This document shows, piece after piece, positions 1-56,501 of a stretch of DNA of 64,000 bases. The position numbers and the translations under genes were made by a program. Every line of letters begins with the position of its first letter. Within the stretch, counting starts at the first letter, position 1. The DNA lies in the NCBI GenBank assembly GCA_040753875.1, contig JBFMDV010000005.1, forward strand, positions 305,142 through 369,141. The letters are read 5' to 3'. The notes beneath the pieces are model-generated. The model searched no databases. It saw only the letters and a list, made by a program, of their open reading frames with translations, and was not told where the DNA came from. Source of the stretch: Candidatus Zixiibacteriota bacterium (GTDB lineage Bacteria > Zixibacteria > MSB-5A5 > GN15 > FEB-12).

Positions 1-362
1 CAGATGAATCGATAGCTTCCCGCGCCCGGCGGCTGGAAACAGACAGTAGTCGTAAACTGATACGGGAATTTCTGCGGTGTGTAACTTATCGGGCCCTCGA
101 CCAGCGACAAGGTCAGCGTGTCGTAGGTATCCGGGTCGGTGGCGCTGATCTGGTAACACGACGAATCGCCGACACAGAGACGCCAGGTGGTATCGCCCGG
201 CAGAATCAGGGTCGGATACCAGGTGGGATCAGCCTGCGCGACCGACGTGGTAACATCGGTCGAGATCGATTGTCCGGGGGATGGCGCCGCCACGACGAAT
301 TGCGGAAAAAACAAGCAAAGAAAAATTGTCGGAAATCTAAGGAAGGAGATCAACCGCTTCAT
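1..362 (-). CDS. hypothetical secreted protein, N-terminal 120 codons (rest of gene lies beyond the left edge)
   Basis: Absent from the ORF track because it has no stop inside the window. Manual minus-strand translation from ATG 362-360 gives MKRLISFLRFPTIFLCLFFPQFVVAAPSPGQSISTDVTTSVAQADPTWYPTLILPGDTTWRLCVGDSSCYQISATDPDTYDTLTLSLVEGPISYTPQKFPYQFTTTVCFQPPGAGSYRFI, open down to base 1. The N-terminus is signal-peptide-like. GGAGGA (rc of 366-371) lies 3 nt upstream of the ATG. Confidence 0.55.
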   Translation of the reverse strand, partial: MKRLISFLRFPTIFLCLFFPQFVVAAPSPGQSISTDVTTSVAQADPTWYPTLILPGDTTWRLCVGDSSCYQISATDPDTYDTLTLSLVEGPISYTPQKFPYQFTTTVCFQPPGAGSYRFI

Positions 363-563
363 CTTTCCTCCACACACGACCGGGCTGACCGCACGTTATC
401 CCGCTGTCGGCGAAATCTATTGGCCGAGACGATGCCAAATGGAGTTGTTCGCAGGGAACTCCCCCTTTGGACTTGCAGGATTTACGATATGGGCTACCTT
501 CAGGTCGGGTAAGACCACACTGCAGTAATCAGTAGCTGCTCTAAAATCTATCGAAACCATACA

Positions 564-591
564 AATATACCGTTTTCCCCAGATTCGTCAA
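564..591 (-). promoter_or_regulatory. candidate sigma70-type promoter for the left-edge gene
   Basis: Minus strand reads TTGACG (rc of 586-591), 16-nt spacer, TATATT (rc of 564-569). This implies a ~190-nt leader to the ATG at 362. Confidence 0.35.
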
Positions 592-797
592 GTGGTTATG
601 CCATTTCGAGCCAGTGTCGACGCAAGAATTGGGCCGAAACCCAGGCGGTTATCTCGTTGGCGTCTAAGGTGCTTTTCACGCCGTCACGGCCCATTTGGTC
701 GGCCTGCTGCCCAAGCTGTGCAGAGTTCTGCGCATACTGGACCTAAGACTCCTCGGTGTATCGTTGGTGTAGACGTGGCTTTAGATGATTAGCTCCT

Positions 798-879
798 CCG
801 TTTGGGTTCGTTATGGTGCAGTAATTGAGCTAAGTACTTGGGAATCAACAACCGTTTTTGGGTTCGTTTTGTCATTTTT
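798..879 (+). repeat. two direct copies of CCGTTT(TT)GGGTTCGTT (798-812, 852-868); 858-879 is the left arm of a 22-nt inverted repeat
   Basis: Direct reading. TTGGGTTCGTTTTGTCATTTTT (858-879) matches the reverse complement of 2384-2405 with 2 mismatches. Confidence 0.7.
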
Positions 880-954
880 TGTTGCTCCGTCGTTGCCGTC
901 CTACGGACACGCCGTGCGACGCTGACGGATTTTACCACAGACGGTGGCTATTCA

Positions 955-1139
955 GTTCTTTGTAGGTCAAGACCCCTTCAGGGGCTCAAACATGGGTGGG
1001 GGTCTTGACACCTCGGGTAACAAAACCCCCTCCTTCAGAATAGTTCTTTGTAGGTCAAGACCCCTTCAGGGGCTCAAACATGGGTGGGGGTCTTGACACC
1101 TCGGGTAACAAATCGTCAAAACCCCCTCCTTCAGAATAG
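955..1139 (+). repeat. two tandem copies of an ~88-bp hairpin-containing unit (955-1043, 1044-1139); a third copy lies at 2416-2504
   Basis: The unit is GTTCTTTGTAGGTCAAGACCCCTTCAGGGGCTCAAACATGGGTGGGGGTCTTGACACCTCGGGTAACAAAACCCCCTCCTTCAGAATAG. Copy 2 carries a 7-nt insertion (AATCGTC). There is an internal 11-bp inverted repeat, GTCAAGACCCC / GGGGTCTTGAC. Confidence 0.9.
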
Positions 1140-1367
1140 CATCATCGAAGTTTTCACCTACAACTCGACGCCACGATGACAACTGGGCTGCCACGCCGCG
1201 GTTCGAGCCCTCTTGCGTCGGTTCGAGCCCCCTTGCGTCGGTTCGAGCCCTCTTGCGTCGGTTCGAGCCCCCTTGCGTCGGTTCGAGCCCCCTTGCGTCG
1301 GTTCGAGCGAAGTCGAGAACCGAACCCAGGCTAATCGCGTCTCGTCTGCGCTCGACGCGACGGAAAG
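1044..1367 (+). repeat. copy A of a duplicated ~275-325-bp non-coding module (hairpin unit + 58-nt tail + 20-bp tandem array + 3' flank)
   Basis: Near-identical by eye to 2416-2690. Both have the same tail, CATCATCGAAGTTTTCAC(C/T)TACAACTCGACGCCACGATGACAACTGGGCTGCCACGCCG. Both have the same post-array flank, GGTTCGAGCGAAGTCGAGAACCGAACCCAG..AATCGCGTCTCGTCTGCGCTCGAC.CGACGGAAAG. They differ in array copy number. Confidence 0.9.
1201..1309 (+). repeat. 20-bp head-to-tail tandem array, 5 full units plus a 9-nt partial unit
   Basis: GTTCGAGCCC(T/C)CTTGCGTCG occupies 1201-1220, 1221-1240, 1241-1260, 1261-1280 and 1281-1300, then GTTCGAGCG. Variant order is T,C,T,C,C. There are no spacers. Confidence 0.95.
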
Positions 1368-1410
1368 TGGATACTTGAAGCAACTAATAAACTGCAAGAA
1401 AATTGGCAAC

Positions 1411-1450
1411 GGCAGGGTGGCCCACCCGCTTGCGGGTGGGTTTGTGTCGG
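1411..1450 (+). repeat. 40-nt conserved hairpin motif H1 (second copy H2 at 3209-3247)
   Basis: GGCAGGGTGGCCCACCCGCTTGCGGGTGGGTTTGTGTCGG, with stem CCCACCCG / CGGGTGGG. H2 is GGCAGGTGGCCCACCCGTTCGCGGGTGGGTTCGTGTCGG. Confidence 0.85.
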
Positions 1451-1587
1451 AGGGTAACCCGGTAACACACCTATTCAGGCGTGATCTCAGACTTGCCCCG
1501 TAACCCCATCGATACTGGTACCTCCACTTTCCCCACTAAATCCCGGCAGATTCCGATTCCCTCCCCATTGATAAATAAGGGAGTTAC

Positions 1588-2710
1588 TATGCCTGCCAGT
1601 CAAAAACAGACCCGCGCCAATCGGCGCAACGCCAACAAATCCACCGGCCCCAAAACCGACGAAGGGAAAGCCGTCGCCGGCCGGAACGCCGTCAAACACG
1701 GCCACTACGCGAATACCGTCGTCATCACCTCCCCACAGATCACCGAGGATCAGGCCGAATACGATCGCCTGTTGGCCGATATCACCCGGGAACTCAAACC
1801 GGAAACGCCGCTTCAGGAGCATTTTGTCTGCAAGATCGCCAACTGTCTCTGGCGCTCCCGGCGTGCTGCCACCGCCGAAACCGCCGAAATCACTGCCCAA
1901 CTCGCCAAGGTCGATACGGAGATCGAGCAAGACGCCGAGTGGAGAGCCCGATGGCGCGGCGACGACACCTATCCCGGCATTGAAGACCTCGGCGAAACCG
2001 AGCGCGCCGCCCGCGACATCACCCTACATCAGCGCCTCATCCCCGAGGACAAAGCCGCCTACAACATTCTCCGATACGAAATGCGGCTCGACAGGCAGCT
2101 CACTCGCGCCTATCACATGTTTCTGCACCTGAAACAGCGACACCGCGTCGCCGCGCGACGACGTCTCGCACGCACGCGAAAACTCGCCGCCTCGCGTAAG
2201 TTGCTGCGCCCCAAGCTGCGTGCGGGTCGCGCACGGGCCGTCCGACCTCCCGAGATTTCCTCCAAGCCAATGGACAACATTGACATTCACGAACGTGTCG
2301 TATCCGAACGCGACATGTTGGCGATGTCTAACTCCGTATCCGCCAATTCGGTAACACCCCATTTCACGTGTCTTGACAAAAATGAAAATGACGAAACGAA
2401 CCCAATTGGCAGCCGGTTCTTTGTAGGTCAAGACCCCTTCAGGGGCTCAAACATGGGTGGGGGTCTTGACACCTCGGGTAACAAAACCCCCTCCTTCAGA
2501 ATAGCATCATCGAAGTTTTCACTTACAACTCGACGCCACGATGACAACTGGGCTGCCACGCCGTCGGTTCGAGCCGCCTTGCGTCGGTTCGAGCCCCCTT
2601 GCGTCGGTTCGAGCCCCCTTGCGTCGGTTCGAGCGAAGTCGAGAACCGAACCCAGCCCAATCGCGTCTCGTCTGCGCTCGACACGACGGAAAGAACGATG
2701 TGACTTGTAG
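1588..2710 (+). CDS. hypothetical protein with basic N-terminal motif NRRNA..STGP.T.EGK....NA.KHG; 3' end uncertain because the frame stays open through the repeat module
   Basis: ATG at 1588 is preceded by AAGGGAG (1577-1583). The N-terminus MPASQKQTRANRRNANKSTGPKTDEGKAVAGRNAVKHG resembles, from memory, a widespread uncharacterised family seen in environmental bacterial genomes. From about 2384 the frame crosses the inverted-repeat arm, the 88-bp unit and the 20-bp array before the stop at 2708-2710. Confidence 0.55.
2384..2405 (-). repeat. right arm of the 22-nt imperfect inverted repeat (partner 858-879)
   Basis: GAAAATGACGAAACGAACCCAA is the reverse complement of TTGGGTTCGTTTCGTCATTTTC, matching 858-879 at 20 of 22 positions. 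Confidence 0.7.
2416..2690 (+). repeat. copy B of the duplicated non-coding module (one 88-bp unit + tail + 3-unit array + flank)
   Basis: See 1044-1367. The sequences diverge after ...GACGGAAAG (about 2690 here, about 1367 in copy A). Confidence 0.9.
2567..2635 (+). repeat. 20-bp tandem array, 3 full units plus a partial unit
   Basis: GTTCGAGCCGCCTTGCGTCG (2567-2586), then GTTCGAGCCCCCTTGCGTCG twice (2587-2626), then GTTCGAGCG. Confidence 0.95.
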
Positions 2711-3208
2711 CAATGAGACGACCTTGTGTGGACATTCTGAAGTGCGTTGAGGGCCTGTATTGTTCGTTGTGGCGGGTCAGGTCTTGCAGCCGCAAGTTTC
2801 ATCATCGCCGCACTTCGACTCGCTCAATGCGACGACGACAGAGCGCACTTGCACTGAAGCGCGGCCGTATGACCCGCCACTTTTTCAGCAGTCCCTTTAT
2901 AGAGTGGGATTGGTGCATTTCGCGCCACGACGAGGAATCTGACCATCGACATGTGTCATTCCCGCGCACGCAGGAACCCAGCCGCAGCCAACCCCTGGAT
3001 TCCCGTTTTGTTGTTCCGGCAGTTCTTGCTCGCCCGAGACGAACAGAGATTTGCCATTACATTTCCGCACGCGCTGTCGAGGGCGAGTGTGAACTGCCGG
3101 TCAATGACCAGCCACCTATTCGGTCGGGGCATCAATTTACACCTGATATGTATGTCACCAACTATAGGCTGCAGGTCACACAACACCTTCGGCTGGGGTC
3201 GCTCATCC

Positions 3209-3247
3209 GGCAGGTGGCCCACCCGTTCGCGGGTGGGTTCGTGTCGG
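3209..3247 (+). repeat. hairpin motif H2 (copy of 1411-1450)
   Basis: Same orientation as H1. It differs at three substituted positions (two in the loop-proximal part, one in the 3' tail) plus a one-G length difference at the 5' end, and the 8-bp stem is preserved. Confidence 0.85.
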
Positions 3248-3473
3248 GTGACGCCCGACCGCACTACTGAATTCGTTAGTGCCGAGATAGACTGATATGG
3301 GAGAAGGAGAATGTGCTGGACCCAGCCTTAGGCTGGGATACAACTGGAAAGTGTGACCCTCGCGACGAATGCGGGCGCAATCCGGTCACACCAACCCCCC
3401 CCCTTGACAAAATAGGCCATAATTGCCTTCTTTCTCGGCAAGTAGAGATCGAAACAGTCATAAGGAGACCAGC

Positions 3474-5492
3474 ATGGCCAAGAGCGCCGCCAGGAGTGTC
3501 ACCAAATCCGCCGCCAGGCCGATCCAGAAGCCGGACATCAAAACCGGCTCGAAAAAGACAATCGATGTCCTGCTCGAAGAGAATCGCTTATTCAAGCCTT
3601 CCCCCGCTTTCATCAAACAAGCCAATCTGAATCACGGCTCGATTCTTAAGGCGGCTGAGGCGGACCCGGTCAAGTTCTGGGAGAGCATGGCGTCTGAGCT
3701 GGTCTGGAAGAAGAAATGGTCCAAGGCGCTTGATTGGAATCCACCGGATGCGAAGTGGTTCGTGGGGGGAAAACTGAACGTGACCGAATCCTGTCTCGAC
3801 CGTCATATCAACGAGGGAACCGGGTGCCGTCGGAACAAAGCGGCGCTTATTTGGGAAGGGGAACCGGGTGACAAGCGTGTGCTCACCTATTTCGAACTCT
3901 GGCGCCAGGTGAACAAATTCGCCAACGTGTTGAAGAAGCTCGGTGTGAAAAAAGGGGACCGGGTCGCGATCTACCTTCCGCTCATTCCGGAACTAGTGAT
4001 TTCCACTCTGGCGTGTGCGCGGATTGGGGCGGTGCATTCGGTGGTATTCGGCGGCTTCTCCCCTGAAGCGCTGCGGGAGCGAATCAACGATGCGCAAGCC
4101 AAAGTGCTGATCACCGCCGACGGCAGCTACAGGAGGGGACAGATTATTCCGCTCAAGCACGACGCCGATGTGGCACTCGCGGATTGTCCGACGATTGAGC
4201 ATTGCATCATAGTCAAGCGGGGTGACTTTTTACTGCGCGTGAAAGAGGGACGGGACCACTGGTATCACCGCCATATGCAGGAAGCGGAGAATTACTGTCC
4301 ACCGGTCTATATGGATGCCGAGGACCCACTGTTTATCCTGTACACATCGGGAACGACCGGCAAACCGAAAGGGATCGTGCATACATGCGGCGGCTATATG
4401 ACTGGCGTCTATGCGACCAGCAAATATGTGTTCGATATGAAGAACGAAGACGTGTTCTGGTGCACGGCGGATATTGGCTGGGTGACGGGGCACTCGTACG
4501 TGGTGTATGGACCGTTGGCGAATGGCGCGACACAGGTAATCTATGAGGGAGCGCCGGACTGGCCGGACCAGGATCGATTTTGGCAGATAGTGGAAGATTA
4601 TGGAGTGTCAGTCTTCTACACGGCGCCGACGGCAATCCGCGCGTTCATGAAATGGGGGCGGCAGTGGCCGGACAAGCATGACCTGAGTACGCTCCGCCTT
4701 CTCGGTTCGGTTGGCGAGCCGATCAATCCGGAAGCCTGGATGTGGTATCATGACGTTATCGGTAAAGAGAAGTGCCCCATCGTTGATACCTGGTGGCAGA
4801 CCGAGACCGGGCATATCCTGATTACACCGATACCGGGGGTAACATCGACAAAACCGGGTTCGGCGACGCGCCCGTTCCCGGGAATCAGCGCGGCGATTCT
4901 CGACGAAAAAGGAAACGAGATCAAGGAAGGGGGCGGTTTCCTGGCGATCACCAAACCGTGGCCCGGCATGCTTCGGGGAATCTGGGGAGACCGCCAGCGG
5001 TATGTCGACACTTATTGGACCAAGTGGCCGGGGGTCTATTTCCCCGGCGATGGGGCCAAGGTTGATAAGGACGGCTATTTCTGGATACTGGGGCGGGTTG
5101 ACGATGTGATCAACACCGCCGGACACCGCATTTCGACGATGGAGGTGGAGTCGGCGCTGGTGGAGCACCAGGCAGTCGCCGAAGCGGCGGTAGTAGGTGT
5201 GCCGCACGAGCTAAAGGGAGAAGGACTGGTGGCGTTTGTGACGGTCGGGTCGGCGATCAAACCGGACGACCGGCTGAATTCGCAGCTCAAAGATCATGTG
5301 GTGCGCAAAATCGGGGCGTTAGCGAAGCCCGAGAAGATCATCTTTGCGTCAGATTTGCCGAAGACCCGCTCGGGGAAGATCATGCGACGGCTGCTTCGCG
5401 ACGTGGCCACCGGCAAGGTGCTGGGGGATACAACCACGTTATCCGATCCTGAAGTAGTGGCGCGCATCAAGCGGCGGTACGAAGAGGATTGA
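3474..5492 (+). CDS. acs: acetyl-CoA synthetase (AMP-forming) with ~29-aa basic N-terminal extension
   Basis: AAGGAG (3462-3467) precedes the ATG at 3474. Adenylate-forming motifs [11 protein letters not shown] and [12 protein letters not shown] are present, and the protein is colinear with Acs from [14 protein letters not shown] onward. Confidence 0.95.
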
Positions 5493-6594: not shown

Positions 6595-8611
6595 GCTTGA
6601 GCTCGTTCTTCAAGGTGGTGACTTCATCTCGGATCAGGATGGCGGTTTCAAAATCCAGATTCTCCGCTGATTTTTTCATCGCTCGCATCATAAACGCCAG
6701 TTGATCCTCACTCGACATCAACTCGAAATGCTCGGGCTTCTCGAACCTGGCCTCTTCGACTGTCTTGCTGTCCGCAAACGCGGTTGAGCGGATGATCTCA
6801 TCGCGGGTTTTGTAGATCGTCTCCGGGTCGATTCCGTGCGCTTCATTGTAGGTCAGTTGCTTGGCGCGGCGGCGATTGGTCTCCTCGATCGCCTTACGCA
6901 TCGAGTCGGTCACTTTGTCGGCATAGAAAATGACGGCGCCGTTCTTGTTGCGGGCCGCCCGTCCCGCTACCTGTACAAGCGACCGTTCGGACCGAAGAAA
7001 ACCCTCTTTGTCGGCATCGAGCACCGCGACCAGCGAAACCTCAGGCAGGTCGAGTCCCTCTCTGAGCAGATTGACGCCGATCAGGACATCGAACTCAGCC
7101 AAGCGGAGGTCTCTGATGATGGAGGTTCGGTCTATGGAATCGATCTCACTGTGGAGATACCGCACCCGGATGCCCATGCGAGACATGTAGTCGGTGAGGT
7201 CCTCGGCCATCCGCTTGGTCAGGGTGGTGGCGAGCACCCTTTCCCCCTGTGCCACACGCTTCCGCACTTGCTCCAGCAGATCATCAACCTGGGTGCGAAG
7301 TGCTCTCACCTCGATCACCGGGTCCAGCAATCCGGTGGGGCGAATGACCTGTTCGACTACTACCCCCTCACATTTTTCCAGTTCGTATTCAGCTGGCGTG
7401 GCGGAAACGTAGATACGTTTCTGAAGCAGATTATCGAACTCCTCGAAAAAGAGCGGTCGATTATCCAGCGCTGATGGCAACCGGAACCCATGCTCTACCA
7501 AGACCTCTTTGCGGCTTCGGTCACCCGCAAACATGCCTCGCGCCTGCGGAATCGACTGGTGGGACTCATCGATGATAGTCAGGAAATCATCGGGGAAAAA
7601 GTCGATCAGCGTCTTGGGCCGTTCCCCCGGCTGACGTCCGGTGAGATAGCGCGAGTAGTTTTCGACCCCGGTGCAGTAGCCGACTTCTTTGAGCATTTCC
7701 AGATCGTAGCGGGTTCGCATCTCCAGCCGCTGGGCTTCGAGGAGCTTATCGAGCGAGCGAAAAAGCTCCAGACGTTCCTTAAGCTCTTGTTCGATCTGGA
7801 CAATTGCGCCTTGAAGAGTCGGTTTGGAGGTGACGAAGTGCTTGGCCGGATAGATGGCCACTTTGTGCCGTTCAGCGAGAATCTCCCCCGTCAATGGGTC
7901 AATCTCGGAGATACGTTCGATGGTATCACCGAACAGCTCGACACGCAGCGCTGTCTCGCGATAGGCCGGGATGAGCTCGATGGTGTCGCCGCGAACGCGG
8001 AAATTGCCACGCGAAAAGTCAATATCGTTGCGGTTGTAGTGGATGTCGATCAGATTGCGAATGAGCTGGTCACGGTCGATATCGGTGCCGACCTGCAGGA
8101 ACAGGAGTTGCGCCTTGTATTCCTCAGGCGAGCCCAAACCGTAGATGCAAGAGACTGAAGCAACTATGATCACATCATCGCGCTCGAGGAGCGAAGCGGT
8201 GGCCCGGAGGCGGAGGCGGTCGATGTCCTCATTCATCTGCGTATCTTTTTCGATGTACGTATCGGTGGTAGGCAGGTAGGCCTCGGGCTGGTAATAGTCA
8301 TAATAGCTGATAAAAAACTCGACGGCGTTTTTCGGGAAGAACGCTTTCAACTCTCCATAAAGCTGCGCCGCGAGAGTCTTGTTGTGGGACATGACCAGAG
8401 TGGGGCGCCCGTGACGGGCGATAACGTTGGCAATAGTGAAGGTCTTGCCGGAGCCGGTCACGCCGAGAAGGGTCTGATGGGTGCGTCCCTGAACCAGACC
8501 GGCAGTGAGTTCATCAATCGCCTGTGGTTGGTCCCCCTTGGGCTCGAAACCGGCATGCAGTTCGAAATGGGCCTTTGACCCTGTGTTCAATCCGCGAGTA
8601 TCCGTGTGCAT
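6569..8611 (-). CDS. uvrB: excinuclease ABC subunit B
   Basis: 680 aa. It has GDQPQAI, the Walker A motif [10 protein letters not shown], helicase motifs, and a C-terminal UVR domain ([13 protein letters not shown]). Confidence 0.97.
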
Positions 8612-9183: not shown

Positions 9184-11678
9184 CGCACAGGCAGACGAGA
9201 GTGAACACGAGAGCAGGGACTGCTCTAATAGTCTGGCTGGCCATGATGGCGTTCGGCATCGTGGTCACTGCTCAGGAATCACTGAATGTCACCGACGTAG
9301 AGGTGGTAGGCAATCGCGTTGCCACCTCTTCCCTTGTCATGGGGGTGTCCTCGATTGACAAGGGGAGCCCCCTCACACCCGCTTCAGTTCAGGAGACAAT
9401 CCGCCGGCTGTACAGACTTGGAGTCTTTGAGAGCGTGGCAGTCGAAGCGGAGCGGACCGCGGGCGGCGTCAAGGTCTTTATAGTCGTCAAGGAGCTTCCC
9501 AAGCTCGCCGGTCTGGAGTTTTCCGGCAACAAAGAGTTCAAGAGCAAGGAGCTTCAGGAAAAACTGAAGCTCGGTGTCGGGGGATACATCTCTCCGTACC
9601 TCATCGCCGTCAAGAAACAGGAAATCGTCAAAGCGTACGCCGACAAGGGGTATTTCCGCACCGAGGTTTCCTCCAGCCTCAACTACAGCGCCGATTCCTC
9701 CGAAGCAGTGCTGACCTATCGTATCGACGAACGCTCCAAGGTCAAAGTCGAGCAGGTGATCATGACCGGCAATGTGCGGGTGAAGGCGAGCGACCTGATC
9801 GGCAAGATGAGAAATCGAAAACGCGGCTTCCTTAAGAGTTCCACGTTCGTGGAGGAGAAATACGAAGAGGATCTGCGGAAGGTGGCTGACGAGTATCACA
9901 AGAAGGGGTACATCGACGCCTATATCGTATCCGACTCGACCCGCATCGACAGTACGACCAATCGCATGAAGATATACCTCGACGTGTACGAAGGGCCCCT
10001 GTATTACTTCGGCAAGGCTGAGTTCAAGAACAACGAGGCGCTGAAGACCGACGTGCTGCGAAAAAAACTCAAGTTCAAAGAGGACGATATTTTCAACGCC
10101 GAAGTGTACGAGAAATCGCTCTACGAACTGTACACGGCGTATCAGGATATCGGCCATCTGCATGTACGGGTGAACGACGAGCGAACCACGCGCACAGACT
10201 CGATCGTCGACATCGCCTATGATATCGCCGAGGGGCTCCCCTCGCATATCAACCTGGTCAAGATCGTCGGCAACTCCAAGACCAAGGACCGCGTGATCCG
10301 CCGCGAGTTGTCGGTGCTTCCCGGACAGGTGTTCAACCGGGCGCTGCTCATACGTTCGGTGCGCGATGTCATGGCGCTCAACTTCTTCTCCAACGTCGAG
10401 CCGGTGCCGATCGACCTGCCGAACGGCGATGTCGACCTTGAGGTCAAAGTGGACGAAAAGCAGACCGGGCAGATCTCGGCCGGAGCGGGATACAACAGCC
10501 AGGATAAACTGGTTGGGACCCTGGGGATGGGGATACCGAATTTAGGCGGCAACGGCCAGAATCTCACGTTCAATATCGAGTTCGGCAAGAACCGCAATTC
10601 GTTCTCGCTGTCGTTCACCGAGCCCTGGTTATTCGGCAAACCGACCCTGCTCGGGTCCGACGCTTACCTGGCCAACCGTCGGTGGTACGACGAGTACACC
10701 GAGGGACGACAGGGTGGGTCGGTGCGATTGGGACGACGTCTCAGCTGGCCGGACAACTACTTCCGCGCCTATGCGGCGTTCCGGCTGGAACGGAACAGAT
10801 TCTATGATTTCAGCGATGCCTTTGATACCAACAACCGCTTCAAATCGTATTACTACAAGGACAGCGACAGCAGCGGCGCGTACAGTTCCGCCGATTCGCT
10901 TGTGACGACGCACACGTATGGCGCGTATCCGGGTTCTGTCCTGGCGTACAACGAGGACTGGAATACGGCATCACGGCTCTCGCTGACCATCACGCGAGAT
11001 TCCCGAAACCTTCCGGAGTTCGCGACCAAGGGCTCAGAGGTTTCGTACACCTTCGAGAACACGGGTGGACTGCTGGGTGGGTTCTGGCACTATCAGAAAC
11101 ACCAGTTGTCGCTGTCCAAGTTCGTGCCGCTTATCGGCAACACGGTCGCGCTGGCGGCACGCGTGCAATATGCGATGCTCACCGCCCCCGACGGCGACAG
11201 CCGGATTCTGGTATCGGATCGATTTTCACCCGGCGGCACGGCGTACGACGGGATCGTTCGCGGCTACGACGACGGTATCCTTACTCCGGACTCGGTCGTG
11301 GCCCAATCCGACAGCATACTCTGGTACAACGATCCGAATCCGGACACCCTCACTGACACCGCCCAGTTGGTTTCATACAACCCGTACACGACCCGGGTGC
11401 GCGGCAAGTACATGCTGGTGACGAATCTCGAACTGCAATTCGCCATTGCCAAACAGCAGTTTTATGGATTATTGTTCTTCGATGCCGGAAACTCGTGGCT
11501 GCGCCGGACCGATATCAAACCGCTCACGGATCTCTACCGGGGGGTTGGGTTCGGTTTCAGAGTAGTGGTGCCGGGTATAGGCACGATCGGCTTCGATTTC
11601 GGGTATCCGCTTGATAAATATCGACACCAAAAGCAGAGCTGGAAACCGCACTTCCAGATCGGGACGACTTTCAGATAA
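9180..11678 (+). CDS. bamA: outer membrane protein assembly factor BamA
   Basis: 832 aa. It has a signal-like N-terminus, POTRA-like repeats (VEVVGN..., GLEFSGNKEF...) and a C-terminal Omp85 barrel. The start is uncertain: TTG at 9180 overlaps the rplU stop, and GTG at 9201 is an alternative. Confidence 0.9.
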   Translation: MTHRQTRVNTRAGTALIVWLAMMAFGIVVTAQESLNVTDVEVVGNRVATSSLVMGVSSIDKGSPLTPASVQETIRRLYRLGVFESVAVEAERTAGGVKVFIVVKELPKLAGLEFSGNKEFKSKELQEKLKLGVGGYISPYLIAVKKQEIVKAYADKGYFRTEVSSSLNYSADSSEAVLTYRIDERSKVKVEQVIMTGNVRVKASDLIGKMRNRKRGFLKSSTFVEEKYEEDLRKVADEYHKKGYIDAYIVSDSTRIDSTTNRMKIYLDVYEGPLYYFGKAEFKNNEALKTDVLRKKLKFKEDDIFNAEVYEKSLYELYTAYQDIGHLHVRVNDERTTRTDSIVDIAYDIAEGLPSHINLVKIVGNSKTKDRVIRRELSVLPGQVFNRALLIRSVRDVMALNFFSNVEPVPIDLPNGDVDLEVKVDEKQTGQISAGAGYNSQDKLVGTLGMGIPNLGGNGQNLTFNIEFGKNRNSFSLSFTEPWLFGKPTLLGSDAYLANRRWYDEYTEGRQGGSVRLGRRLSWPDNYFRAYAAFRLERNRFYDFSDAFDTNNRFKSYYYKDSDSSGAYSSADSLVTTHTYGAYPGSVLAYNEDWNTASRLSLTITRDSRNLPEFATKGSEVSYTFENTGGLLGGFWHYQKHQLSLSKFVPLIGNTVALAARVQYAMLTAPDGDSRILVSDRFSPGGTAYDGIVRGYDDGILTPDSVVAQSDSILWYNDPNPDTLTDTAQLVSYNPYTTRVRGKYMLVTNLELQFAIAKQQFYGLLFFDAGNSWLRRTDIKPLTDLYRGVGFGFRVVVPGIGTIGFDFGYPLDKYRHQKQSWKPHFQIGTTFR

Positions 11679-55990: not shown

Positions 55991-56262
<272 letters not shown>

Positions 56263-56308: not shown

Positions 56309-56416
56309 CGAGCAATTCAGTATCGCATCCTAGTCAGCTTCGCGAACAAAACCGCGTAGGTCGGGTTCCGAGTCCGCTTCGGACGAGAAACCCGACAAGC
56401 CATCACAAAAACAAAA

Positions 56417-56489
56417 TGGAGCAGATCGGGATCGAACCGACGGCCTCCACGTTGCGAACGTGGCGCTCTCCCAGCTGAGCTACTGCCCC
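56417..56489 (-). tRNA. tRNA-Ala (anticodon CGC), CCA not encoded
   Basis: The reverse complement is GGGGCAGTAGCTCAGCTGGGAGAGCGCCACGTTCGCAACGTGGAGGCCGTCGGTTCGATCCCGATCTGCTCCA. It forms a 7-bp acceptor stem with the G3:U70 alanine identity pair. The anticodon loop is TTCGCAA and the T-loop is TTCGATC. Confidence 0.95.
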
Positions 56490-56501
56490 AAGGACATCGT
56501 C

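Follow-up and report, generated by a model that had tools for sequence, protein, structure and literature searches.

An undescribed bacterial gene family and its 11-nucleotide signature within a REP-type hairpin mosaic: a candidate selfish cassette

Introduction

How does a single gene come to lie within a mosaic of short repeats, and does the gene itself take part in building the mosaic? The question is raised by a locus at positions 798-3247 of a stretch of 64,000 nucleotides (nt) from a Candidatus Zixiibacteriota bacterium (assembly GCA_040753875.1, contig JBFMDV010000005.1, positions 305,142 to 369,141; this whole stretch is hereafter the window), where a first-pass annotation had described five kinds of repeat around one gene. 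The repeats are a variant of the mosaics of repetitive extragenic palindromic (REP) sequences, or bacterial interspersed mosaic elements (BIMEs). The gene and an 11-nt signature linked to it, AAAC(G/A)AACCCA, are undescribed in the libraries and the literature searched. The common signature, the REP-type hairpins with their GTAG and CGTC tags and the very large family of the gene were all missed by the first-pass annotation. The reading preferred here, which is tentative and to which we give slightly less than an even chance, is that of a selfish cassette of one gene; the product of this gene would act on the signature, and the cassette would be located in a signature-bounded, BIME-like REP mosaic that was recently duplicated locally.

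Results

A short signature accompanies a large gene family

The gene is an open reading frame (ORF) of 373 amino acids, to whose residues 1-185 only the homologues align; these usually measure 205-220 residues and their tails are unconserved. Longer tails are often translated downstream repeats, and in two proteins the signature itself is read in frame (KKMTKRTQ in P0001, KKMSERTQ in P0004). The invariant or nearly invariant residues comprise the N-terminal ANRxNAxKSTGPxTxEGK...NAxKHG, W88-R89, R92, E97 and Y163-E164. The window ORF belongs to the family by these residues and by the adjacent AAAC(G/A)AACCCA signature (2394-2404). A profile search of 1.84 billion cluster representatives (50%-identity clusters) retrieved 39,759 of them at E <= 1e-3 and 23,018 at E <= 1e-10, and more than 539 loci were located in reference genomes of Zixibacteria, Acidobacteria (Bryobacterales), Planctomycetes, Verrucomicrobia and Proteobacteria. 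The closest genome relative, L001, has 49% protein identity.

The window protein and longer family members had no match in Pfam, NCBIfam, PHROGs or PADLOC, the first two giving none even at E <= 1; sequence-profile and structure searches of the PDB were without match, and a literature search on the N-terminal motif found nothing. The protein has a basic N-terminus and an all-helical AlphaFold model (pLDDT 89) with two helices of about 45 residues each, for which Foldseek returned nothing beyond generic coiled coils. Because the acs product (Acs) of the source genome is recorded at 100% identity in the public protein collection, where the best match of the cassette protein reaches 55%, the ORF was probably left uncalled or flagged as a pseudogene in the source annotation.

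Linkage of the signature to the gene was analysed in 82 homologous loci from several phyla (621 kb). AAC[GA]AACCCA is the most enriched word 3' of the gene, and ACGAACCCA lies downstream in 29 loci against 1 in control flanks. Of 59 forward copies of the signature in these sequences, 57 are found at +500 to +1500 nt from the gene start, and where the ORF ends before the signature the gap after the stop codon is mostly 3-34 nt. Two copies of the signature about 90 nt apart, or copies in tandem with 11-nt spacing, are frequent. The limits of the cassette are given by two paralogues in one Zixibacteria genome (L008 and L011), since the stretch that they have in common starts at exactly -61 and stops where the signature stops. 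Some Bryobacterales genomes hold at least six gene copies in units of about 1.25 kb, 85-96% identical, which extend from about -230 to about +490 nt around the gene. Neighbour genes differ between loci, being unrelated housekeeping genes; the phage collection contained no family match and the plasmid collection three weak ones.

A metagenome scan starting from the signature, with the 17-mer ATGACRAAACGAACCCA, yielded at least 120 loci. Among the matches listed, the family gene accompanies the 17-mer in 30 of 120 loci, on the same strand and in one of two fixed arrangements, the 17-mer lying either just past the gene (at least 14 loci) or 34-40 nt upstream of the start codon (at least 14 loci). 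The latter arrangement is an alpha-proteobacterial type, in which the gene follows genes for Gp157 and Rad52/DUF968 (Pfam assignments) and a divergent helix-turn-helix (HTH) gene; examples are L069 (1918-4654), L117, L203 and L113, Gp157 being Siphovirus Gp157. Other identities for the signature were considered. The T-loop-like GGTTCGAGCC recalls a tRNA, but it has no stem partners and ARAGORN finds only the tRNA-Ala at 56416; sigma-54, extracytoplasmic-function sigma factor, integration host factor, LexA-box and primer-binding-site readings were compared by eye and none fitted.

Several homologous loci have peculiarities of their own. Two copies or fragments of the family gene stand in tandem on one contig in L010 (2761-3818) and L077 (358-2257), and Bryobacterales contigs carry oppositely oriented pairs 20-74 kb apart (L013/L017, L022/L024, L025/L026). 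An element of about 1 kb, 99.6-99.9% identical, occurs near several Bryobacterales gene copies (L023 169-1475, L028, L031, L037), and L023 1402-1475 matches a group II intron model. In Planctomycetes, the homologues are preceded by short tandem repeats rich in A/T (CAATAGT/CAATCGT-like), which stand immediately 5' of the ribosome-binding site, about 100 nt before the ATG (L051, L054, L056, L064, L066, L067, L080). In L002 a fragmented AAA-type ATPase frame of overlapping partial ORFs (1811-3873), probably a pseudogene, sits between an inverted signature pair and the family gene.

The signature runs through the repeats of the locus

In the window, AAACRAACCCA with at most one mismatch occurs at 8 sites, against 1.7 expected over 64 kb, and 7 of the 8 lie within 800-3250: at 803, 859, 1437 and 3234 on the minus strand and at 1318, 2394 and 2644 on the plus strand. 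They fall in the left inverted repeat (twice), in the right inverted repeat, in the loop of each tail hairpin and in the 3' flanks of the hairpins H1 and H2. Each 88-nt unit, moreover, ends in a degenerate signature, AACAAAACCCCC, as read by eye (1019-1030 in unit 1). The sole signature-like site outside the locus (11546-11556, minus strand, AACCGAACCCA) may be due to chance. The parts of the locus are the following.

801-815, minus strand: inverted signature copy 1, TAACGAACCCA at 803-813; a second, weaker left copy of the inverted repeat
857-879, minus strand: left inverted repeat, which is inverted signature copy 2, AAACGAACCCA at 859-869
955-1042 and 1043-1138, plus strand: 88-nt units 1 and 2 of module A, the second with an 8-nt insertion
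1139-1198, plus strand: 'tail' spacer common to modules A and B, within the 82-nt repeat
1199-1308, plus strand: 20-bp tandem array of module A, 5.5 copies of CGGTTCGAGCCCCCTTGCGT
1296-1365, plus strand: tail hairpin of module A, long and imperfect, beginning CGTCGG; loop with signature-like AACCGAACCCA at 1318-1328
1411-1450, plus strand: H1, a terminator-like G+C hairpin with TTTGTGT after it; an inverted signature can be read in its 3' flank, 1437-1447
1528-2405, plus strand: cassette core of about 880 bp, comprising conserved leader, ORF and signature AAACGAACCCA
1528-1588, plus strand: conserved leader, TTTCCCCACTAAATCCC at 1528-1544, then a hairpin (1555-1562 / 1578-1585) pairing the Shine-Dalgarno GGGAG
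1589-2710, plus strand: ORF of 373 amino acids, conserved core at residues 1-185 (1589-2143), tail unconserved
2385-2405, plus strand: right inverted repeat, which is the 3' signature of the family, AAACGAACCCA at 2394-2404
2416-2503, plus strand: 88-nt unit 3, which opens module B
2504-2691, plus strand: rest of module B (spacer, array, tail hairpin)
2562-2634, plus strand: 20-bp tandem array of module B, 3.7 copies
2622-2691, plus strand: tail hairpin of module B, AACCGAACCCA at 2644-2654
2954-2982, plus strand: TGTC-tagged REP-type palindrome GTCATTCCCGCG...GGAACCCAG of CGTC-superfamily type, with a match to L008
3016-3100, no strand assigned: further 25-nt inverted repeat, 80% complementary
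3209-3247, plus strand: H2, the second H hairpin; inverted signature-like ACACGAACCCA at 3234-3244

A reading of positions 1-4200 together with repeat searches located all five repeat classes of the first-pass annotation where it had placed them, and in the order that it gave (left inverted repeat, module A, H1, gene, right inverted repeat, module B, H2); none was found elsewhere in the window. The hairpin unit of about 88 bp is indeed present three times, with a 46-nt core identical in 3/3 copies and matched in 0/100 shuffles, and the H motif does recur in direct orientation, H1 and H2 having 91% identity. Some dimensions had to be revised. The conserved tail, described as 58 nt, is an 82-nt repeat (1117-1198 and 2482-2563, 99% identity); the 20-bp arrays, counted as 5 and 3 units, measure 5.5 and 3.7 copies; and the inverted repeat, given as 22 nt, was measured as 21 nt, 858-878 pairing with 2385-2405 at 95% complementarity. 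The description of the region as otherwise non-coding is incorrect, as the ORF that starts at 1589 stays open to 2710, through the right inverted repeat and module B. Nor are the five classes independent, because the signature (at most one mismatch) runs through most of them.

Each 20-bp array is trailed by the shared 70-nt hairpin (1296-1365 and 2622-2691). Modules A and B, 96-100% identical and with unequal unit numbers (2 against 1 for the 88-nt unit and 5.5 against 3.7 for the 20-bp unit), bracket the series formed by H1, leader, gene and signature. The leader start TTTCCCCACTAAATCCC is found in other Zixibacteria loci as well, and with the same motif the paralogous units of L008 and L011 begin at -61.

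The suggestion that the repeats might be a family of structured RNAs found no support. The Rfam comparison that had been proposed gave nothing at the cassette, either in the window at gathering and E-value thresholds or in 17 homologous loci, and the folds are weak by their z-scores, the 88-nt unit having -1.25 and the tail hairpin and H1 between -2.1 and -2.7; H2 alone reaches -4.1. The tail hairpin at 1296-1365 folds with -32.9 kcal/mol (z = -2.3), and the terminator-like H1 was not flagged by a consensus scan. The statement that the locus contains no array of clustered regularly interspaced short palindromic repeats (CRISPR), no attC array, no transposase and no integrase was upheld; the arrays run head-to-tail without spacers, which is not the CRISPR arrangement.

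REP-type hairpins and arrays without the gene

The palindromes of the locus carry REP tags of two superfamilies. In 3/3 of the 88-nt units a GTAG tag (962-965 in unit 1) directly precedes a palindrome (966-1009; stem 966-976 / 998-1009), and an unpaired GTAG beside a short palindromic stem is the mark of the GTAG superfamily (Di Nocera et al., PMC3733652). A high copy number, dispersed over the genome, is another mark of GTAG REPs; within the 64 kb of the window the 88-nt unit has no copy outside 955-2503. A metagenome scan with the core of the unit gave 0 matches. REPs of the CGTC superfamily combine a CGTC or TGTC tag with an 8-9-bp stem starting with AT and a CCA-like tail, and they are without a dedicated transposase (Di Nocera et al., PMC3733652). 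The palindrome at 2954-2982, TGTC-ATTCCCGCG...GGAACCCAG, has this tag, the AT-start stem and the CCA-like tail.

Related hairpins are found in other genomes. Arrays of the TGTC/CGTC type lie 3' of the gene in L003 and L081 and upstream in L002. The palindrome GTCATTCC...GGAATCCAG, likewise of this type, is nearly unchanged in distant genomes and often arrayed beside the family gene (window 2954-2982; L002 660-1070; L003 5100-5950; L081 6837-6988). L008 and L011 share a compact hairpin, TGTAGGTCAGGAC...GTCCTGAC, of which L008 4669-4696 is a canonical 27-nt version.

Signature-bounded units also exist apart from the gene. Direct arrays of 2-9 signature copies were found in at least ten metagenome loci whose contigs contain no family gene, among them L126, where a 117-nt unit is repeated in tandem 4.5 times. 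L105 consists of six gene-less units, each opened by the signature and with differing hairpins inside, including TTGTAGGTCA...TGACCTACAA and a relative of the TGTAGGTCAGGAC hairpin. This array is a BIME-like mosaic in which the signature is the inter-REP motif.

Gain of the block and duplication of the module

The composite is located between the gene of a giant surface protein, which reads leftward, and acs. These neighbours are conserved in five syntenic relatives (L207-L211, Acs 82-84% identical to that of the window), in which a giant surface protein with a type IX secretion system (T9SS) sorting domain on the minus strand is followed by acs on the plus strand. The N-terminus of the left gene product is 43-47% identical to those of the relatives and hence orthologous, and the DNA near the start codon also matches. 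The spacer measures 3,112 bp in the window and 500-750 bp in the relatives, whose spacers contain neither the family gene nor the signature. Because only about 362-660 and the acs promoter region align with the relatives, a block of about 2.7 kb (roughly 700-3390) is, judged from this alignment, a lineage-specific gain. The features outside the block are the following.

362-660, no strand assigned: ancestral part of the spacer, the only stretch aligning with the spacers of L207-L211 besides the acs promoter region near 3404
591-564, minus strand: promoter-like site of the leftward giant-protein gene
3395-3473, plus strand: ancestral acs promoter and leader, TTGACA at 3404-3409, CTTGACAAAATAG common to L208
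3474-5492, plus strand: acs, encoding Acs

Further along the window, a bacterial large signal recognition particle RNA (55991-56256, minus strand) adjoins tRNA-Ala(CGC) (56416-56490, minus strand); both are ordinary landmark genes.

The duplication of the module is recent and local, and it has a gene-less parallel in L001. There, a 176-nt segment that starts with the H hairpin (7095-7125), holds the first 26 nt of the tail hairpin (7187-7212) and ends with the signature is framed by 118-nt direct repeats, 97% identical, an arrangement that by analogy mirrors module A, the series H1, gene and signature, and module B. In L011, L032 and L058, segments made of the signature plus flank are duplicated around inserted hairpin blocks. 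Together with the L001 segment, these duplications indicate that local copying at or near the signature is recurrent.

Expression signals

Across the 82 loci, strong hairpins are enriched in the 500 nt before the gene start, where their density is 1.35-2.0 per kb compared with about 0.5, and again from +750 to +1250 nt; therefore, an upstream hairpin like H1 is common in the family. The Shine-Dalgarno sequence of the window gene has a pairing probability of 1.0 (control 0.85), and values of about 0.7-1.0 were obtained in most Zixibacteria loci, several of which have CCUCC/GGAGG stems.

Discussion

Any account of this locus has to accommodate what was observed, namely the gained block, the linkage of gene and signature, the presence of the signature within most classes of repeat, the tags of the REP type and the recent duplication. 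In the preferred reading of a selfish cassette in a REP mosaic, the protein would recognise the signature as DNA or RNA, and copies of the signature would bound hairpin units of the GTAG- and CGTC-tagged REP type to give a BIME-like mosaic. Recombination or replication slippage at signature sites may then have copied a module of 280-415 bp so that it brackets the cassette, and the same process may have altered the unit numbers (2 against 1, and 5.5 against 3.7). The gene would be insulated by the terminator-like H1 upstream and by the hairpin that pairs the ribosome-binding site, an arrangement typical of selfish or harmful genes. Of the three origins suggested by the first-pass annotation, a mobile element or a recombination-prone cassette site fits best, in agreement with the empty spacers of the relatives, the multi-copy family in some genomes and the gene-less signature-bounded arrays. 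A mobile origin agrees with the absence of the block from five syntenic relatives, but the locus is more than the scar of a non-autonomous element, with an apparently intact, strongly conserved gene at its centre.

Several findings weigh against this reading. In the alpha-proteobacterial subfamily the signature precedes the start codon by 34 nt, so that it is not simply the end of an element. The exact signature is absent from about half of the homologous loci, and many of the 90 gene-less 17-mer matches, among the matches listed, may be chance. The protein has no recognisable catalytic fold or motif and hence gives no sign that it could move DNA. Paralogous copies differ by 4-27% and no identical ones were seen, so recent transposition is not indicated, and neither a target-site duplication nor a consistent pair of left and right ends was found. 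The empty-site relatives are distant, so the order of events is not recoverable from them. REP-type hairpins gather in any permissive spacer, and their presence here may therefore be incidental. Finally, occlusion of the Shine-Dalgarno sequence is not significant over the family: since the pairing in 61 scorable loci equals that of the shuffled control (0.63 against 0.63), occlusion is a feature of a subgroup only.

The alternative that survives best, although we consider it unlikely, is an ordinary REP/BIME hotspot, with REPs spread by a REP-associated tyrosine transposase (RAYT) encoded elsewhere, an orphan gene that is unrelated to them and occupies a permissive spacer, a signature that is a 3'-end or regulatory RNA element in the transcript of this gene, and a module multiplied by slippage. 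The GTAG and TGTC tags on the palindromes would be expected from it, as would the location of REPs mostly downstream of genes (PMC3733652) and the different unit numbers of modules A and B. It also accords with the strand specificity of the signature, with its close coupling to the stop codon and, in the alpha-proteobacterial loci, with its position after the HTH and Rad52/DUF968 genes on their own strands. However, the units of the window do not recur in 64 kb, unlike high-copy REPs, and the signature stands within the repeats themselves and bounds hairpin units in gene-less arrays. As a general 3'-end mark of other genes the signature is a weak candidate: at 17-mer sites without the family gene, among the matches listed, upstream ORF ends are barely enriched (28% against 19%).

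An improbable explanation is a transposon with terminal inverted repeats spanning 858-2405, in which the ORF would encode a transposase of a new kind. The 21-nt, 95% complementary inverted repeat does enclose module A together with H1 and the gene, relatives lack the block, and inverted upstream copies exist in L002, L011 (degenerate), L117 and L203. Nevertheless, an inverted copy within 4 kb was found in only a few of about 40 signature-bearing loci; the rarity of such copies led us to reject the inverted repeat as a family-wide element end, and it is not a typical terminal inverted repeat. In L117 and L203, where the exact inverted signature is 2.2-2.6 kb upstream, the family gene is outside the inverted pair. 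A target-site duplication is lacking, as is a transposase fold in the protein model, and the relatives are also without module B and H2, which the inverted repeat does not enclose.

Similarly improbable is an integron-like cassette array, that is, an attC cluster without integrase in which the signature is part of an attC-like site after each cassette. The pattern of attC is an imperfect palindrome, RYYYAAC ... GTTRRRY, and a complete integron has an integrase nearby. In favour are the position of the signature directly after the stop codon, the direct site arrays that separate short units and, in L019 and L042, a signature with an inverted pairing partner, GGGTTCGT(T), some 40 nt downstream, the one in L042 ending GTTAAGC. 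Yet GTTCTTTG, the sequence at the unit borders of the locus, departs from GTTRRRY, a partner arm is lacking at most sites, no integrase is present, and the site is tied to one gene family rather than to diverse cassettes. Conservation of an 11-nt sequence across phyla would also be unusual for attC sites, in which the structure is conserved and not the sequence.

A type III toxin-antitoxin-like locus is very improbable: its order of tandem-repeat RNA, terminator and toxin gene is reproduced by the tandem repeats (955-1308), the terminator-like H1 and the gene, but the all-alpha model is not a ToxN/AbiQ-type fold, PADLOC gave no match, the upstream tandem repeats are not conserved in homologous loci and the same module is also found downstream of the gene. 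Least credible is an assembly artefact from a collapsed or mis-joined repeat, for which the metagenomic origin of the genome and the 96-100% identity of the modules could be cited, since the modules differ in unit numbers and point changes, each has unique flanks, and both flanks of the locus, on a source contig of 550 kb, are syntenic with relatives.

If the preferred reading of a selfish cassette is extended to the whole family, gene and signature would form a new, phylum-spanning class of selfish cassettes whose helical protein drives the copying of signature-bounded hairpin units. This generalization is doubtful at present. If true, the family would be a non-HUH counterpart of the RAYTs, and possibly the missing partner of REP classes without a dedicated transposase, such as CGTC (PMC3733652). 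A family of about 40,000 clusters (50% identity) that has no entry in the searched domain libraries and no structural relative is tied to a non-coding sequence of 11-17 nt that varies very little between phyla, and such conservation is usually the sign of a specific interaction between protein and nucleic acid. Were the protein to act on the signature, bacteria would have a new way to build and spread composite hairpin repeats, and REP classes without a driver would have a testable candidate. Even under a cautious reading, the signature is a useful new marker for annotation. The protein set of the source genome apparently lacks the gene.

Comparison with known systems

Membership of the locus in RAYT/REPtron systems, insertion sequences, attC clusters, ToxIN loci, CRISPR arrays or Rfam families fails in each case on a defining feature, whereas the tags of REPs are present. 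Type III systems of the ToxIN type share the tandem repeats, the terminator-like hairpin and the gene; the protein fold is another one, and the repeats are not a feature of the family and stand also downstream of the gene. Integron cassettes and attC clusters share the conserved site after the stop codon and the direct site arrays separating short units, but the locus has no R''/R' core sites at unit borders and no integrase, it involves a single gene family and its site is conserved in sequence. From insertion sequences with terminal inverted repeats the locus differs in that its 21-nt inverted repeat is accompanied neither by a visible duplication of the flanks nor by a recognisable transposase.

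Members of the IS200/IS605 family are small, with one short ORF, and need neither terminal inverted repeats nor target duplications. The cassette resembles them in these respects and in the terminator-like hairpin upstream, the stem pairing the ribosome-binding site, its divergent copies and its presumably low activity. Unlike them, it has no TnpA(Y1) or TnpB and no defined subterminal hairpin pair or target tetranucleotide, and its mobility is presumed.

Also close to the locus are REPtrons, in which RAYT genes are flanked by REPs, and REP/BIME mosaics (PMC2817692, PMC3116915, PMC3733652). Common to both sides are GTAG- and CGTC/TGTC-tagged palindromes grouped into composite arrays whose inter-REP motifs are conserved, a small gene flanked by hairpins, and arrays in spacers, mostly downstream of genes. 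The cassette protein, in contrast to that of REPtrons, is not an HUH/Y1 transposase (no Y1_Tnp match); it is all-alpha, and no relative of known function was detected. RAYTs are typically single-copy, whereas the cassette gene is multi-copy in some genomes. Moreover, the units of the window, which are not seen elsewhere in 64 kb, are bounded, unlike those of REP/BIME mosaics, by an 11-nt signature that crosses phyla.

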